From NCBI GenBank assembly GCA_030019365.1, contig JASEFA010000001.1, forward strand, positions 334,953 through 398,952: a stretch of 64,000 nucleotides of DNA. The letters run 5' to 3'. Below, one piece after another: positions 8,162-62,492 of the stretch. The stretch comes from Bacillota bacterium. GTDB taxonomy: Bacteria > Bacillota > Sulfobacillia > JACIYH01. The stretch's first letter is position 1, and each line of letters opens with the position of its first letter. A program made the position numbers and the translations under genes. The notes beneath the pieces were generated by a model. It saw only the letters and a list, made by a program, of their open reading frames with translations. It did not search any database and was not told the origin of the DNA.

Positions 8162-8194
8162 TCATCCGAGGAGGTGAGGAGCGTGCCCAAATTC

Positions 8195-8425
8195 ATGAAC
8201 CAGCCCAAGGTGCTCCCAGATCACGTACTTGATAACTTCAAGTACGAGCTCGCGGACGAACTTGGCATCACGCCCAAGATCCGCGACGGGTACTGGGGTG
8301 ACGTTCCTGCGCGCGAATGCGGCAAGGTGGGCGGCAAGATCGGGGGCAACATCGTGAAAGTTATGATCCGCCACGCCGAGCAGGCGCTGGAACAAAACCA
8401 GGGCCAGGGTCGCTCTAACCTCTAG
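8195..8425 (+). CDS. small acid-soluble spore protein, alpha/beta type
   Basis: Core 'FKYELADELGI…GKVGGKIGGNIVKVMIRHAEQAL' matches the alpha/beta SASP DNA-binding signature. The ATG at 8195 lies 13 nt downstream of GGAGGTGAGGAG. Confidence 0.85.
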   Translation: MNQPKVLPDHVLDNFKYELADELGITPKIRDGYWGDVPARECGKVGGKIGGNIVKVMIRHAEQALEQNQGQGRSNL

Positions 8426-8644: not shown

Positions 8645-9451
8645 TTGCGACCATCCGCGGGCGGGAATGGACTGCGTCCTGTTGCCTTCCTCCTTCAGGA
8701 GTTGCTCAAAACGCACACCTGGCAGCAGGTGGCGCTGGGCGCGTCATTATGCCAGGTATTTGACTTGATGCCACACGGCGGGGGACCATGCGTCTACCTG
8801 AAGGTATCAGGCCCCACGTCCGGGTGCCAAGTCAGGCGGGAACGAGACCGGTTGGTGTGGCTGCGGGGCAGGATCCCCATCCCCGAGGTGCTGGGATACG
8901 TGGAGTATGCCGGGCGGCAGTATCTGCTTACCACCGGGATTGCGGGCGTGCCCGCCTCTGACCCCTCCCTGGGAGGCAACCTGCCCCGGTTGGTGTCGCT
9001 CCTGGCTGAGGGACTGAAGCTGATCCACGCAGTGCCGTTCGAGCATTGCCCTTTTGACGCCAGGTTGGAGGTGGAGGTGGTCCGGGCGCACGGACGGATG
9101 GTCGCCGGCCTGGCGGATGAGGAGGATTTCGACCCGGTTCGTAAGGGCAAGACCGCCCGAGAGCTGTATGACATGCTCATCGAGACCCGGCCCGCCCGCG
9201 AAGACCTGGTGTTCACCCACGGTGACTACTGCCTGCCCAACGTGATCATCAACGACGGTGAGATCAGCGGCTTCGTCGACCTGGGCAGTGCCGGAGTCGG
9301 GGACCGCTACCGGGATCTTGCGCTGGCCGCCAGAAGCATCGGGGGGAACCTGGGCCTCCGTTGGGTCAGACCCTTCTTCCAGGCGTATGGCATCCACGAC
9401 CCGGACTGGGCCAGGGTAGAGTTCTATCAGCTGCTGGACGAGTTCTTTTGA
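8645..9451 (+). CDS. aminoglycoside 3'-phosphotransferase, APH(3') family
   Basis: 268 aa, apparently co-linear over its length with NptII-type APH(3'). Shared motifs are 'VFTHGDYCLPNVI', 'GFVDLGSAGVGDRYRDLALAARS' and the C-terminal 'FYQLLDEFF'. TTG start at 8645. Confidence 0.85.
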   Translation: MRPSAGGNGLRPVAFLLQELLKTHTWQQVALGASLCQVFDLMPHGGGPCVYLKVSGPTSGCQVRRERDRLVWLRGRIPIPEVLGYVEYAGRQYLLTTGIAGVPASDPSLGGNLPRLVSLLAEGLKLIHAVPFEHCPFDARLEVEVVRAHGRMVAGLADEEDFDPVRKGKTARELYDMLIETRPAREDLVFTHGDYCLPNVIINDGEISGFVDLGSAGVGDRYRDLALAARSIGGNLGLRWVRPFFQAYGIHDPDWARVEFYQLLDEFF

Positions 9452-10291
9452 TCAGGGAAGCCTCTTGCCCACCAGGGGGGCCAGCCGACGCACATCGTGC
9501 ATGAGCGCGGCAAAGTCGAGGGGGCCGAGGGATTGAGGCCCTTCGCACAGGGCGCGGTGGGGATCGGGGTGAACCCTGACCATGAGGCCGTTGGTGCCGG
9601 CGGCCACCGCCGCGCGGGCCATGGCACAGATGAGGTCAGGGGAGCCCGGGTGGCAGCAGGGATCGGTGACCACGGGCAGGTGGCTCAACTGCCTCACCAG
9701 GGCCACTGCCGCCAGGTCAAGGGTCGTCCCTGCAGCGGTGTCAAAGGTGCGGATACCTTTCTCACAGAGGACTACCTGCGGGTTGCCCGCATCCAGGATG
9801 CACTGTGCGGCCAGCAGCCATTCCTCGATGGTGGCAGCCGGTCCCTTCTCGAGGAACACCGGCCTGCGCCCCAGTCCGACCTCCCTGAGCAGGGGGATGT
9901 TTTGCATGTCCCGTGCGGCGATCCCGAGCCCATCTGCGTACTCGAGCACCAGGCCCACGTCGCGGGGATCACCGACCTCCGTCAGAACCGGGATACCTGC
10001 CTCATCGCCCGCGTCCCGGAGCATCCTCAGGGCGTTCACTCCCAGGCCCTGGAACTCATGTGGAGAGGCCTTTGACGGGAAGACGCCTGCTTTCAGTATC
10101 GCTCCCCCCAGCCTCTTGACCACACGCGCGGCCGCTCTGATCTGCTCCTGGCTTTCCACGGTGGCCGGCCCGGCGATTACCACCAGGTGGTGGGACCCGA
10201 TGGGGACGCCGCCCACGTGAACCACAGTCTCTTCGCCGGCTTCTACGCGCCTGACTCCGCCCGGGGCCTTGACCTCTAGCATCTGTACCAC
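9452..10291 (-). CDS. aroF: 3-deoxy-7-phosphoheptulonate (DAHP) synthase, AroF/KDO8PS-like class
   Basis: 279 aa with 'LVVIAGPATVES' and the DAHP-synthase I-beta fold. GGGGGAG SD 9 nt upstream of the ATG. Preceded by a T-box leader. Confidence 0.9.
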   Translation of the reverse strand: MVQMLEVKAPGGVRRVEAGEETVVHVGGVPIGSHHLVVIAGPATVESQEQIRAAARVVKRLGGAILKAGVFPSKASPHEFQGLGVNALRMLRDAGDEAGIPVLTEVGDPRDVGLVLEYADGLGIAARDMQNIPLLREVGLGRRPVFLEKGPAATIEEWLLAAQCILDAGNPQVVLCEKGIRTFDTAAGTTLDLAAVALVRQLSHLPVVTDPCCHPGSPDLICAMARAAVAAGTNGLMVRVHPDPHRALCEGPQSLGPLDFAALMHDVRRLAPLVGKRLP

Positions 10292-10420
10292 TCCCCCTTC
10301 TCCCAGAGGTGCCTCGCGCCCTCCGCCCCTGGCACCGGCGGTCCCCTTCCGCCCTCGCCTGCGGCGGTCACCCTCTCGCCGCGCCAGTGACGACTGCCGC
10401 TACAGGCGGCGCGGCGGACG

Positions 10421-10451
10421 CAAAAAGCCCCGTCCCGGCAAGGGACGGGGC
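10421..10451 (-). terminator. intrinsic terminator of the T-box leader
   Basis: Hairpin GCCCCGTCCC–GGCAAG–GGGACGGGGC followed by UUUUU on the minus strand, ~130 nt upstream of the aroF start. Confidence 0.6.
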
Positions 10452-10805
10452 TCTCACTCCCGCGGTACCACCCTGATTGCTTCCGGCGCGCCGGGCTGGC
10501 GACAGCCGGATGCCACTCCGTTCGAGTACGGGACCGGCGACGCCGATCCGTATACCCGCTTCCGTGCTAACGGTGGAAGGTCCGTCTGCGCCTACTCGGC
10601 CCGGGGTTACCGGCCGGTCCGTCCGCAGGTCGCCGGCCGGCCATCCGGCCTCCGGTACCGTTCAGGCAGCCGCTCCCGGGAGAACTTCACGTCGCCTGGA
10701 GTCGCCCGGCTTCCACCGTCCCCGGCTCGCTAGAAACCCGACGGCGAGCTACTTTTCCCGTTCATGGCGTTTACGGGGGTATGCCTGCCTTCCCCCGTAT
10801 GATTT
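10421..10805 (-). promoter_or_regulatory. T-box riboswitch leader (tRNA-sensing) controlling aroF
   Basis: Minus strand carries the canonical T-box sequence 'AAUCAGGGUGGUACCGCGGGAG' (plus 10459–10480). It is immediately followed by a GC hairpin and a U-tract. The leader 5' end has the GA-motif region. Specifier not resolved (possibly Tyr UAC/UAU). Confidence 0.65.
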
Positions 10806-10811
10806 TGGGCT

Positions 10812-10841
10812 AATCTACCACGGGCGGTCCGGTACAGTCAA
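10812..10841 (-). promoter_or_regulatory. sigma-A-like promoter for the T-box/aroF transcript
   Basis: Minus strand has TTGACT (-35), an 18-nt spacer and TAGATT (-10). The predicted TSS lies just before the first leader hairpin. Confidence 0.35.
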
Positions 10842-10959
10842 TGGATAGGGATGCCAGTGCTCGCCCCGCGGGCGCATGGCGGGAGCGGAAACCGCGAAAC
10901 CTATGCATCGACCGGTGGGAGGCCGAAAGCCCCTGGTGCGCAATCGGAGGTGTTGACCG

Positions 10960-11472
10960 GTGGCGAAAGACAAGTCCCAAAACATAGACCTGTTGCGGCA
11001 GAGCCTGGGCCCCATCCCCTCCCCCGGCAGTGCCCAGACGCCGGCGGGGTATCTCACCCAGGCCGTCACCACCATGCAGAACATCCTGCGGCAGGAGCAG
11101 TTCACCTCGGAGCAGGAACTGCAGAGCAGCCTGACCCAGTCTTCCACGAAGGTGTCGCAGTCCCAGCGTCTGGACCAGATGCTGGCCCTGGCCAACCAAC
11201 TGGTGCAGACGGCCCAGGGGGGAGCCGACGCCGTGCGCCAGAACCTGCCCCACTTCCAGCAAGCCCTGCAGGAATTGAAGACGCAGATCGCCGACGAGGA
11301 AACCCAGATCGGCACCCAGGTTTCCCAGGCGTTGCAGCAGGCGGTGTCCAGCCTGGCGCAGGCCCACGCTGCCATGGTGCAGGGCCAGTCATTCCGCGAC
11401 CTCAACCGCCTGGTGGCGGAAGCCGAGCACCTGGTGGGCCAGATTCAGAAGCCCACGGACGTGGTCTCCTGA
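10960..11472 (+). CDS. hypothetical Gln-rich coiled-coil protein
   Basis: 170 aa with natural composition (Q/L/A/S/T) and a heptad-like 'QxLxxL' periodicity. The opposite-strand ORF here is P/G/R-rich and judged spurious. No homolog recognised. Confidence 0.5.
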   Translation: MAKDKSQNIDLLRQSLGPIPSPGSAQTPAGYLTQAVTTMQNILRQEQFTSEQELQSSLTQSSTKVSQSQRLDQMLALANQLVQTAQGGADAVRQNLPHFQQALQELKTQIADEETQIGTQVSQALQQAVSSLAQAHAAMVQGQSFRDLNRLVAEAEHLVGQIQKPTDVVS

Positions 11473-11611
11473 TACTCCCGTGACGTTCCCACTCGCCTGC
11501 AGGAAAACCGTCGCTCGGGGTCGAAGCTAGGCCTAAACGAAAACGGCGATGGGGCTCGCCATATGTTGTGGTCCGCAACTGATGGCTCCTGGCTGACAGG
11601 CCGGGAGCCAT

Positions 11612-12325
11612 TTGCATCAGAGGAGGTGTGGGGTCCTGCTTTCTGTAGAGTTGCTTCCCCAGGTCTCCGCCTGGGTCACGGAGTTGACGCTCCCTCAGCT
11701 GCACGCTGCCCTTCAACAGGGGGCTGCGTACCTGCTGGGTCGCGACACGTTTGCCCAGGAAAGTGATCTGTGCGATTACATCGAAAGCCTGGCGGAGCTC
11801 TCGGCTCTTGCCGCCCAGGCCTTCCGTCTGGAAAGGGAACAACGGGAGCTGGAGGCGGAGGAACGGGAGCTCAAGCAAGAGGCAAATGCGCTGGCCGCCG
11901 GGCGGGTGAAGGATTGGGGCGGGCGCGTTGGGTTCCAAAGAGCGGACACAGAAAGACCCGAGGCCCGTTCGGGTTCTACACCGCGCCTGGTCGCCACCGC
12001 TGTGCCCCTCCCCGCTTCCGGGGGCGAGGGGGCAGATGCCGGCGGGGATCTGGCGGGCCGGCTGGGCAAGCTGGCGGCTGAGAAGGGATGGGATGAGGCT
12101 GCCGCAGTACGCAGCGCCCTCACGTGTGCCTTCGCCCTGGCACGGGTAAGCGTCGCTGACCGGGAGGAGTTGGCGAAGGAGAGCAAGCTGTTCGGCCGGC
12201 AGTGCGCAGTGCTCCGCTACCGCATCTGGGTTCTGCTGCAGGACAACCGCATCATCCGCATGCACCTGGCGGGACTGAGAGCGCGCGTGGCCCGCCTCCA
12301 GGCCATGGACTACGACGTTCGCTGA
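11612..12325 (+). CDS. hypothetical protein (charged coiled-coil segment 'REQRELEAEERELKQEA')
   Basis: 237-aa ORF preceded by an AGAGGAGGTG SD. The true start may be a CTG/TTG a few codons in. No recognisable family. Confidence 0.45.
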   Translation: MHQRRCGVLLSVELLPQVSAWVTELTLPQLHAALQQGAAYLLGRDTFAQESDLCDYIESLAELSALAAQAFRLEREQRELEAEERELKQEANALAAGRVKDWGGRVGFQRADTERPEARSGSTPRLVATAVPLPASGGEGADAGGDLAGRLGKLAAEKGWDEAAAVRSALTCAFALARVSVADREELAKESKLFGRQCAVLRYRIWVLLQDNRIIRMHLAGLRARVARLQAMDYDVR

Positions 12326-12398
12326 CCGTGGGCCGCGACTCTGCTCCGGGCGTAAGGGATTGCTGGCCGGGTCGTTGCGAGTGCCCGGCGCTGGCCGG

Positions 12399-13283
12399 TT
12401 AGCACCGGCCGATGTGCCTTATCGCTCCGCGCAGGGCCTGTCTCCAGAGTTCGATGTGCGCAACCTGGAACGGGCCGGGCGGCACCTGCGTCATCCAGCT
12501 CTTGATCTCCCTGGCGGCGATGACGACCGCGTCCCTGTACAGGTCCTGGCGGTCCCACCGGCTGGCGAGGCTCTCGAGCAGTTCGATTCGCTCGACGGGT
12601 GGGCGCGAGAAAAGCAGAAACAGGGCGGGGTCGTAGGAAGGGGGGCGCAACGACGCATATTCCCAGTCCACCAGCCAGTAGCTCCCACCCCGGTCGAGCA
12701 GGATATTGGCCGGCAACAGGTCCCCGTGGCTCAAGACGAGTTTGGCTGCGGTGGTCCAGGACCGCGAGGCGTCCTCGAGAAACGAGAGCGTGTCGGATTC
12801 CAGTTCGCGAGCGATCACGGGCAGGTACTTCCCCAATCTGCTTCCGCGCTCATATTCCGGGCGGAGGCTGCCAGGCGGGTCCACATTCTGCAGGTGCAGC
12901 ACGTCCTCCAGGATGGCGTCGACCTGCGCGCCCTCGCGGAGGCGGAAGGCGTTACGCTTTTCCGCCAGCGGTACCGCGTCCAGGCGGTCGAACAGGAGGA
13001 TCACCAGGTCGTCCGAAACGTAATGGCCGCGCAGGGCCGGCACCCGCACGGGCAGGCCTGGACACGTCTGCAGGAAGCGGAGTTCGTGGCGCAACGCGCT
13101 GAGGCCGTGTGGGTCCCCCCGGGTGCGGGCCTTCACGAACCAGCGGGCCGAGGGGATGGCCACCCGGGCACTGTGCGCGAGCAGGTCGACCAGCCGGTCT
13201 ACTTCCTCCGGGCCGAGGAAGGGCTCCAGCGCCGCGAGCAAGGGTTCCATCACCTGCCGCCTGCCGGCGCCACCCGGCCTCAT
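12399..13283 (-). CDS. APH/ChoK-family phosphotransferase (CotS/bacterial-spore-kinase-like)
   Basis: Kinase Brenner-like motif 'LSHGDLLPANILL' and 'WLVDWEYA'. Start set to the ATG at 13283, which has a GGAGGAG SD 5 nt upstream, not the R/G-rich ORF extension to 13436. Confidence 0.7.
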   Translation of the reverse strand: MRPGGAGRRQVMEPLLAALEPFLGPEEVDRLVDLLAHSARVAIPSARWFVKARTRGDPHGLSALRHELRFLQTCPGLPVRVPALRGHYVSDDLVILLFDRLDAVPLAEKRNAFRLREGAQVDAILEDVLHLQNVDPPGSLRPEYERGSRLGKYLPVIARELESDTLSFLEDASRSWTTAAKLVLSHGDLLPANILLDRGGSYWLVDWEYASLRPPSYDPALFLLFSRPPVERIELLESLASRWDRQDLYRDAVVIAAREIKSWMTQVPPGPFQVAHIELWRQALRGAIRHIGRC

Positions 13284-13516
13284 CCTTGCTCCTCCTGCAG
13301 TTGGGAAGCGGAAAGGTGGTAGAACTCGCCCCGTCGCCGCAGCAGGACATCGGCGGTGCCGGTTTCCACCGCGGCGCGACGCACCACCCCCACGTCGACT
13401 ATGGCTCCGGTCACCTCCCCACCCGAGACCAGTCAATCGCCAGGATCAGCGCTACGCGGCGGTGCAATGTGCAGTGCAGCCGCGTGACCCACGCGCGGTA
13501 GCCGGCCGAAGCGCAG

Positions 13517-14284
13517 TCATGCCCCGGCCAGGGCCGCCGCGTGGTCGCAGATCTCCATGAGACCGCAATATCCCGATCGGAACAGGGCCCGCAACCGGGC
13601 GGGATCGTGACGCACTTCCGACCAGCGCCACACTCCCGCGAAGAAGGCATCCAGGCTACCGGAAGGGCACCAGGGGTCAACCACGGGCAGCACGTCGGCC
13701 ACGCTCCGACGCCATACCTCCAGAGGCGGTTCACCGCGCAGAATGGCGGCGTGGTACACTGCGGGCTTCACGCTCGTCCCAAACAGTCGCACGTAGGAGG
13801 CCAGCCGGGAGTCCGGTTTGTCGGCAATCCTGCCGATGAAGGCCTGGGCTTCCCGCCGCGCCCACGGGAAGAACGACCGTGCCTTCGTGACGATCTCGTC
13901 GGGCTGCGGTTGGGGCAAATCCGGAGGCAGGCTTCCGTAAACAAGCTCATACGTTCCCGGGATGGGCGGAGTCCGATCGGACGGGTAGTTCGGCCCGTCC
14001 AGGAAATAGACCTGGATGGTACTGACGCCGAACGCCTCCGGATCCAGCCCGCCCATAGCGGCCTGGAAGGCCAGAGCCCTGTCCAGGGCCGGGGTACGGC
14101 CATCCACCATGGGCACCACCGACGACCGGAGGAAAAGATGCATGTCGAAGTCCGAGTAGCCGGGGACGAAGTCCCCCTTCACCGCCGACCCCTTGAGGAT
14201 GGCGGTGACCAGTCCGTCGCCGAACACCTCCAGCCCCGCCGCCAGGAGCAGGCCGGCTAGTGCTGCGCGGTCGCGCTCGGGCAT
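13517..14284 (-). CDS. AadA/ANT-like nucleotidyltransferase (Pol-beta NTase fold plus helical C-domain)
   Basis: 'LKGSAVKGDFVPGYSDFDMHLFL' matches the 'LYGSAVDGGLKPHSDIDLLV' catalytic motif of ANT(3'')/AadA. The ~30-aa N-terminal lead and ~255-aa size also agree. RBS is weak. Confidence 0.6.
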   Translation of the reverse strand: MPERDRAALAGLLLAAGLEVFGDGLVTAILKGSAVKGDFVPGYSDFDMHLFLRSSVVPMVDGRTPALDRALAFQAAMGGLDPEAFGVSTIQVYFLDGPNYPSDRTPPIPGTYELVYGSLPPDLPQPQPDEIVTKARSFFPWARREAQAFIGRIADKPDSRLASYVRLFGTSVKPAVYHAAILRGEPPLEVWRRSVADVLPVVDPWCPSGSLDAFFAGVWRWSEVRHDPARLRALFRSGYCGLMEICDHAAALAGA

Positions 14285-26562: not shown

Positions 26563-26639
<77 letters not shown>

Positions 26640-62294: not shown

Positions 62295-62492
62295 CCTTGC
62301 TCCCCTGGCGTGAGATAGCGCTCCACCGGGGAGCAGGGGTCTCCACCGGTGACAGTGCTGCACCTATTCGGTGCAACCCCAGCCGCAGGAGGCGGCCTCC
62401 CTGCAGCTTCGGCGACGACCCCTTTCCCGGCGGCTCACGGCCTGCCCGGCTCCCCGCCGGTACTGATGGTCATCGCGCCTCTACCCCACCTC
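62295..62492 (-). promoter_or_regulatory. lysine riboswitch (L-box) in the lysA leader
   Basis: Minus strand contains the L-box conserved blocks 'GUAGAGGCGCGAUGACC', 'GUCGUCGCCGAAGC', 'GCACUGUCACCGG' and 'GGUGGAGCGCUAUCUCACGCC'. A downstream hairpin can pair CCUCC with the lysA SD. Confidence 0.6.

Follow-up and report, generated by a model that had tools for sequence, protein, structure and literature searches.

Three genes whose products have antibiotic-modification-type folds lie within 5.6 kb in a 64-kb stretch of DNA (contig JASEFA010000001.1; the whole stretch is hereafter called the window) from an uncultured, spore-forming Bacillota bacterium. We found that they are probably independent neighbours, whose proximity reflects this genome's gene order and not a resistance island or an operon. 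The first appears to encode a divergent, vertically inherited member of the APH(3') family of aminoglycoside phosphotransferases. The second encodes an orphan small-molecule kinase (kinase 2), and the third a nucleotidyltransferase of an unnamed family, with a predicted fold close to that of the aminoglycoside nucleotidyltransferases. Both of the latter are orphans within very large enzyme superfamilies. The three genes are as follows.

8645–9451, plus strand: APH(3')-family aminoglycoside O-phosphotransferase homologue, 268 aa from a TTG start (NF033068; alignment to 1ND4).
12399–13283, minus strand: kinase 2, a 294-aa orphan with the APH/choline-kinase fold (PF01636; motifs SHGDLLPANIL and VDWEYA).
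13517–14284, minus strand: 255-aa two-domain nucleotidyltransferase of the Pol-beta type, unnamed family (motif KGSAVKGDFVPGYSDFDMH; fold near ANT(4')-Ia, AadA and ANT(3'')(9)).

In the sequence-only reading that preceded this analysis, the three genes were placed at these positions and described as a chromosomal, non-mobile cluster of aminoglycoside-resistance-fold enzymes around a T-box-regulated aroF. The positions and the chromosomal, non-mobile setting held up. Base composition was ~65–72% GC over the full 64 kb, in a host of roughly 68% GC, and the GC content at third codon positions (GC3) was 0.75–0.89 across all genes of the region. Housekeeping and sporulation genes surround the three: two genes for alpha/beta-type small acid-soluble spore proteins (SASPs; at 8183–8425 and at about 18.2 kb of the window), together with those for a LysM/polysaccharide deacetylase, SurE, an aldehyde:ferredoxin oxidoreductase, DinB and a 4HBT thioesterase. 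The ~20 kb common to the window and a Logan contig of identical sequence (L006) contained no gene for a transposase or an integrase and none of phage type.

The functional part of that description, a cluster acting as one, did not survive the comparison with relatives. The closest public genomes were two metagenome-assembled genomes (MAGs) of uncultured 'Bacillota bacterium', JACIYH010000060 (MAG-73, locus L011) and GCA_030024035 (locus L007). The synteny comparison is based on these two related MAGs and on scattered metagenome contigs; a scan of genome contigs for cc170, one of the open reading frames (ORFs) described below, gave one relative. The MAG-73 contig spans the whole region, and that of GCA_030024035 covers only dinB to cc170. 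The order in the window is APH(3') (plus strand), aroF (minus), two plus-strand ORFs (cc170 and cc237), kinase 2 (minus) and the nucleotidyltransferase (minus). Results showed that the backbone APH(3')–aroF–T-box–cc170–kinase 2–dinB is conserved in the lineage, and that the nucleotidyltransferase and cc237, the 237-aa ORF, occur in this genome only. MAG-73 keeps the whole backbone without either of them, GCA_030024035 shows its dinB to cc170 part, and in both relatives the nucleotidyltransferase is absent between kinase 2 and dinB. Homologues of the nucleotidyltransferase were found in six unrelated contexts. Because the genes lie on different strands with aroF and unrelated ORFs between them, and because the nucleotidyltransferase is missing in relatives and its homologues lie in unrelated contexts, we conclude that a functional cluster is not supported. 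The arrangement would be that of an ordinary chromosome, in which several independently transcribed genes happen to sit side by side. A recent horizontal gain of the nucleotidyltransferase was considered and set aside, as the gene had no compositional anomaly (GC3 0.80) and no flanking mobile genes; with two related genomes only, gain and loss of the gene are indistinguishable.

Among the three, the APH(3') gene is the one that carries a family-level assignment. Its product passed the NCBIfam equivalog model NF033068 (284.7 bits against a cut-off of 205), and residues 19–268 were colinear with residues 17–264 of APH(3')-IIa (NptII, 1ND4; E = 1.6e-49), including the terminal FYQLLDEFF, which agrees with the NptII-type colinearity proposed for it earlier. 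Also kept in the alignment to 1ND4 were the YLK lysine of the Gly-rich loop, the catalytic loop THGDYCLPN and the VDLG motif with the Mg-binding DxG. No cut-off of the named subtypes APH(3')-I to -VIII and -XV was reached, the best being APH(3')-II (237.2 bits against 360). These scores place the protein, as judged from its sequence, in the APH(3') family as a divergent member outside all named subtypes and closest to APH(3')-II. The product was ~41% identical to plasmid-borne APH(3')-II genes, with none of at least 5000 plasmid matches above 60%, and MAG-73 has a 66%-identical orthologue in the same position; for these reasons the gene appears to be vertically inherited as well as divergent. 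Its start is unsure. The TTG at 8645 has no good upstream ribosome-binding site, and the automatic gene call on contig L006 starts 70 codons later (window 8645–8857), leaving 198 aa. We prefer the long form because the 198-aa form would lose the ATP-binding N-lobe that aligns with NptII. The enzyme most likely moves the gamma-phosphate of ATP to the 3'-hydroxyl of a 4,6- or 4,5-disubstituted aminoglycoside, and would count as a gene of the intrinsic resistome rather than an acquired one.

The nucleotidyltransferase resembles aminoglycoside nucleotidyltransferases in predicted fold and not in family. As a single sequence it gave no match to Pfam, to NCBIfam (E ≤ 0.01) or to PDB sequences (phmmer), and the AadA/ANT models NF012157, NF012212 and NF010309 were likewise unmatched. 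A word-indexed search returned 11 homologues, and a profile search of 1.84 billion representatives (clusters at 50% identity) returned 375 clusters at E ≤ 1e-3, 70 of them at E ≤ 1e-30. PF01909, which shares a superfamily with PF18765, was matched weakly by 9 of the 11 close homologues (best E 4.6e-4), the window protein itself lying below detection. The motif KGSAVKGDFVPGYSDFDxH corresponds to the classical hG[GS]...DxD signature; across 75 diverse members G32 never varies, and conservation of S33, S44, D45, D47, Q91, G117 and R166 is at least 90%. The AlphaFold model was of high confidence (predicted local distance difference test (pLDDT) 96; predicted template-modelling (TM) score 0.90). 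In a Foldseek search of the PDB, all of the top 21 matches were aminoglycoside nucleotidyltransferases, among them ANT(4')-Ia (E 1.5e-4), AadA (TM 0.52), ANT(3'')(9) (TM 0.55), AAD(9) and ANT(4')-IIb; the AadA and ANT(3'')(9) matches had a probability of 1.00, and LinB, CD-NTases and MNT antitoxins ranked lower.

Remote sequence comparison pointed the same way over a short stretch. A profile of 75 sequences reached Salmonella AadA (E 5.6e-6) and ANT(3'')(9) (8.5e-5) through ~50–75 N-terminal residues only; the profile of 11 homologues gave insignificant matches only against the PDB, so that the 75 sequences were needed to reach AadA. In hhalign, the comparison with AadA1, a query checked to be 100% identical to plasmid aadA genes, gave 92.8% probability with 40–52 N-terminal columns aligned. 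Distant members of the family scored at most 28 bits against the ANT(9)/AadA models, whose cut-offs are 193–505, and only in the N-terminal ~50 residues. The earlier label 'AadA/ANT-like' is thus right at the level of fold and superfamily and wrong at the level of the family: on these comparisons the protein does not appear to belong to the AadA, ANT(3'') or ANT(9) families.

By its fold, the nucleotidyltransferase would be a stand-alone accessory enzyme that probably binds a magnesium–nucleoside triphosphate complex via G32-S33, D45 and D47. It would move a nucleoside monophosphate onto a hydroxyl of a small molecule, as ANT enzymes do, with that molecule bound in the space between the catalytic and the helical C-terminal domains; both chemistry and substrate are read here from the fold. 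The strand at residues 90–96 (IQVYFLD) carries Gln91, near-invariant in the 75 members, where the canonical fold has its third carboxylate (AadA Glu87), an equivalence taken from fold topology and not from superposition, in a region that hhalign does not reach. The family might make up a new class of nucleotidylyltransferases acting on antibiotics or xenobiotics, with Gln in place of the usual third carboxylate or catalytic Glu; we regard this as a tentative idea and a rather unlikely one. If true, Gln at this site would point to another catalytic base or another class of substrate. A 39%-identical homologue (L013:1271-2044) adjoins ribosomal L13 and L18e-type genes that look archaeal, which suggests that the family extends beyond bacteria, probably to archaea. 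Neither PADLOC nor PHROGs gave a match for kinase 2, cc237 or the nucleotidyltransferase, which speaks against an origin in a defence system or a phage.

Kinase 2 likewise keeps its superfamily and loses the narrower affinities that had been proposed for it. It passed the Pfam APH model PF01636 (47.4 bits against 23.2), so the APH/choline-kinase fold called earlier is confirmed; an affinity to aminoglycoside kinases in particular is not, as all matches to named models are limited to the catalytic loop, the motif is of the DWEY type and the best match is LicA, a choline kinase. Choline_kinase PF01633 just missed its gathering score (28.3 bits against 29, over residues 228–274 only). None of the NCBIfam models was passed, with thiamine kinase at 23 bits against 299 and APH(3') at 21 against 205, and phmmer found no link between kinase 2 and the APH(3') protein of the same window. 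The family is small, only ten homologues being found, with the invariant motifs SHGDLxPxNI and DWE. LicA was the first PDB match in both sequence and profile searches, and also the best Foldseek match (TM 0.58) of the AlphaFold model (pLDDT 88.9), followed by APH(2'')-Ia and fructosamine-3-kinase. A CotS-type spore-coat kinase, the alternative offered by the sequence-only reading, fared no better: YsxE (TIGR02904) scored 16.0–16.4 bits against 263.55, no CotS or YutH model was listed at E ≤ 0.1, and Bacillus subtilis YtaA (2Q83) ranked 47th among the fold matches (TM 0.53), behind LicA and APH(2'') structures. Kinase 2 is therefore an orphan small-molecule kinase for which neither the aminoglycoside nor the CotS reading is specifically supported. 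Choline and thiamine kinases would be nearer to it than aminoglycoside kinases are.

In this lineage kinase 2 keeps its place beside dinB; elsewhere its homologues lie among glycosyltransferases or small hypothetical genes, and a 35%-identical homologue occurs in Thermosporothrix (Chloroflexota). One homologue, 47% identical (L010:518-3597), belongs to a glycosyltransferase cluster; two genes upstream of it is a PF14907 (NTP_transf_5) nucleotidyltransferase, which makes a different kinase–nucleotidyltransferase combination in another organism.

Several observations weigh against our view of the three genes as independent neighbours and of the substrate of the first. Three antibiotic-modification-type folds stand close together, in 5.6 kb, and the remaining 58 kb hold no paralogue of them; this could exceed coincidence, though the count rests on one 64-kb window and gives no statistic. 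The nucleotidyltransferase and kinase 2 are on one strand, 233 bp apart and with no predicted terminator between them, and co-transcription is possible. MFS or MarR genes adjoin two of the nucleotidyltransferase homologues, which hints weakly at a link to drugs. In the APH(3') protein, several positions aligned to 1ND4 differ (E160 to P, R211 to S, D227 to S and E230 to G); in APH(3')-IIa we take these to be kanamycin contacts, and because they are substituted the substrate range of the enzyme is not predictable.

The second of these points could mean that the nucleotidyltransferase and kinase 2 form a two-gene operon for the alternative or successive modification of one metabolite or xenobiotic. 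The shared strand, the distance of 233 bp and the lack of a terminator-like site between them would fit, as would the 47%-identical kinase homologue two genes from a PF14907 nucleotidyltransferase, albeit one of a different family. However, both relatives have kinase 2 alone, the pairing is missing in all six contexts examined for nucleotidyltransferase homologues, and a 233-bp spacer is long for an operon junction. Such an operon is, in our judgement, unlikely. The first point would be explained by a functional chromosomal resistance locus, in which all three enzymes modify aminoglycosides, for instance for self-protection or for defence against neighbouring producers. All three do have APH or ANT resistance folds, they lie close together without paralogues elsewhere in the window, and APH(2'')-Ia is among the top fold matches of kinase 2. 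Against this, kinase 2 and the nucleotidyltransferase pass no resistance-gene model, kinase 2 has the choline-kinase-type DWEY motif with LicA as its best match, both relatives keep the other genes without the nucleotidyltransferase, the genes are on different strands with aroF between them, and the surrounding ~20 kb showed no genes for aminoglycoside biosynthesis. We consider a joint resistance locus very unlikely, and independent neighbours the probable reading.

Between aroF and kinase 2 lie the two ORFs that had been called unannotatable coiled-coil proteins.

10960–11472, plus strand: cc170, a 170-aa Gln-rich orphan protein, no family, 96% identical in two relatives.
11612–12325, plus strand: cc237, a 237-aa Ala/Leu/Arg/Glu-rich hypothetical ORF, no family, weaker coding signal.

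Neither matched a curated family, and in this sense both are indeed unannotatable. For cc170 there were weak matches only, to coiled-coil segments of SMC-like or dynein proteins. Its gene signals are strong (GC3 0.89, a GGAGG ribosome-binding site upstream, 18% Gln), and the protein is 96% identical in both MAGs (L011:4953-5465; L007:13644-14156, minus strand), whereas the flanking orthologues are only 66–69% identical. Compared with MAG-73, cc170 has 30 synonymous and 6 non-synonymous codon differences, against 62–70 synonymous and 86–90 non-synonymous ones in the flanking APH(3') and kinase 2 orthologues. A search of 5.8 billion proteins yielded no more than 3 clusters of homologues. On its gene signals cc170 is clearly a true gene; it is lineage-restricted, the codon comparison points to very strong purifying selection, and it looks like an abundant, strongly constrained structural protein of this lineage.

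The support for cc237 is of another order. Its GC content at the three codon positions is 0.75/0.49/0.75 and it was called as a gene in L006, and tblastn found nothing in MAG-73, in keeping with its absence from the relatives. A 287-aa ORF on the opposite strand was rejected as the real gene because its codon-position GC pattern is worse; a non-coding artefact was also considered, and we retain cc237 as an orphan with weak support. What lies between cc170 and kinase 2 varies from genome to genome: cc237 in the window (11473–12398), 512 bp without genes in MAG-73 (L011:5466-5978), and five genes in GCA_030024035 (L007:8895-13643), namely two acyl-CoA dehydrogenases (ACAD), an AMP-binding ligase, a helix-turn-helix regulator and one more.

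It is highly improbable that kinase 2 is a CotS/YtaA-type spore-coat kinase with cc170, cc237 or both as coat partners: the host is a spore former with SASP genes, cc170 shows strong conservation and a codon bias, as an abundant structural protein would, and in MAG-73 it is 512 bp away from kinase 2, and YtaA is among the fold matches, but the YsxE, CotS/YutH and YtaA comparisons above all go against it, cc237 is absent from relatives, five genes part the kinase from cc170 in GCA_030024035, and kinase 2 homologues occur in Thermosporothrix and in a glycosyltransferase cluster.

The gene between APH(3') and cc170 is aroF, with its leader and signals on the same strand.

9452–10282, minus strand: aroF, a Bacillus-type (class I-beta) 3-deoxy-D-arabino-heptulosonate 7-phosphate synthase (TIGR01361, PF00793).
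10438–10774, minus strand: T-box leader of aroF, transcription attenuation type (RF00230, 65.5 bits).
10422–10452, minus strand: intrinsic terminator of the T-box leader, GCCCCGUCCC, loop, GGGACGGGGC and UUUUU (direct reading; terminator scan 10443–10428).
10812–10841, minus strand: promoter-like site upstream of the T-box leader, TTGACT-18 nt-TAGATT with a TG extension.

AroF passed TIGR01361 (287.1 bits against 267.75) and matched PF00793 (E 1.1e-53), and it has no fused regulatory domain; the start is ATG 10282 in the 276-aa gene call on L006, the longest ORF beginning at GTG 10291. The T-box ahead of it, proposed earlier, was confirmed, with a reservation as to its score. A focused E-value search aligned the leader to RF00230 over the full model (positions 1–219; E 7.2e-14), with a score of 65.5 bits that does not reach the gathering score of 93, so that the T-box goes unlisted at the gathering threshold. 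The low score is due to T-box insertions of 67 and about 39 nt, and standard annotation would miss the leader. The Stem I GA/AGUA/GAA elements are present. The AGGGUGGUACCGCG box shares bases with the 5' arm of the GCCCCGUCCC/GGGACGGGGC hairpin; UUUUU comes directly after this hairpin, about 140 nt ahead of aroF. In MAG-73 the leader core, specifier region and terminator are kept, the terminator being identical, and the inserted hairpins vary. The leader is a real T-box and a transcription attenuator.

The 3' side of the specifier loop is GAAGUUCU by the RF00230 alignment and the Stem I fold. The specifier is probably UUC (Phe), with GUU (Val) as an alternative register; we prefer UUC because it is the only aromatic codon in the loop and fits the pathway of aroF. 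Against it, the base that follows is U, where a purine is usual. When uncharged, a tRNA (probably tRNA-Phe, reading UUC) would stabilise the antiterminator at the expense of the terminator of GC hairpin and U-tract. That T-boxes control amino-acid biosynthesis genes and use specifier codons is documented (PMC2494555). At the Rfam gathering level the window has only two matches, a lysine riboswitch at 62308–62491 (minus strand, 113.5 bits) and a tRNA gene at 26566–26639 (minus strand).

At the other end of aroF, its stop codon and that of the convergent APH(3') gene abut (9449–9454), with no intergenic base and no terminator; the same junction in MAG-73 is about 100 bp. Antisense read-through transcription between the two genes is possible.

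Environmental APH(3') genes of this kind are presumed to be the reservoir from which clinical aph(3') alleles come, and examples are already numerous. The gene described here adds one more divergent, apparently vertically inherited APH(3') to the environmental intrinsic resistome, from an uncultured high-GC Bacillota lineage. The locus also calls for caution: only family-level evidence together with conserved synteny would justify treating neighbours with resistance folds, here a generic APH/choline-kinase-fold kinase and a nucleotidyltransferase of the Pol-beta type, as resistance genes or as an island. What value for discovery it has lies only in the uncharacterised ANT-like nucleotidyltransferase family and in the extremely conserved orphan cc170.

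Compared with known systems, the aroF leader shares with the T-box leaders of aromatic amino-acid genes (RF00230) the Stem I elements, the AGGGUGGUACCGCG box, a mutually exclusive terminator and an amino-acid biosynthesis target, and differs in its insertions of 67 and ~39 nt and in the U, instead of a purine, after the putative UUC. Kinase 2 has the HxDLxPxN and (L/I)DWEY motifs of LicA (4R77) and ThiK, its best sequence and fold matches; it differs in being only ~15% identical, in falling just under the PF01633 cut-off and in having no lic or thiamine gene context. With CotS, YtaA and YsxE it shares the kinase superfamily fold and a spore-forming host, but their family hidden Markov models are unmatched and YtaA is not its preferred structural neighbour. 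The nucleotidyltransferase has, like AadA and ANT(3'')(9) (6FZB, 7UY4) and ANT(4')-Ia (6NMK), a Pol-beta core and a helical C-terminal domain in ~255 aa, and its GS...DxD motif aligns with AadA residues 5–56. It differs from the ANT enzymes in that structural-alignment identity is 10–16% (TM 0.39–0.55) and sequence likeness stops after ~75 residues, and from AadA in the near-invariant Q91 of its family where AadA has Glu87, by topology. The APH(3') protein shares with APH(3')-IIa (NptII, 1ND4) and NF033068 full-length colinearity, the YLK, HGDxxxPN and DLG motifs, the C-terminal LLDEFF and a score above the equivalog cut-off. It differs in being only ~41% identical, in scoring below every subtype cut-off and in the substitutions at the presumed kanamycin-contact positions, and its gene is not transposon-borne but chromosomal, with its place conserved in a relative.

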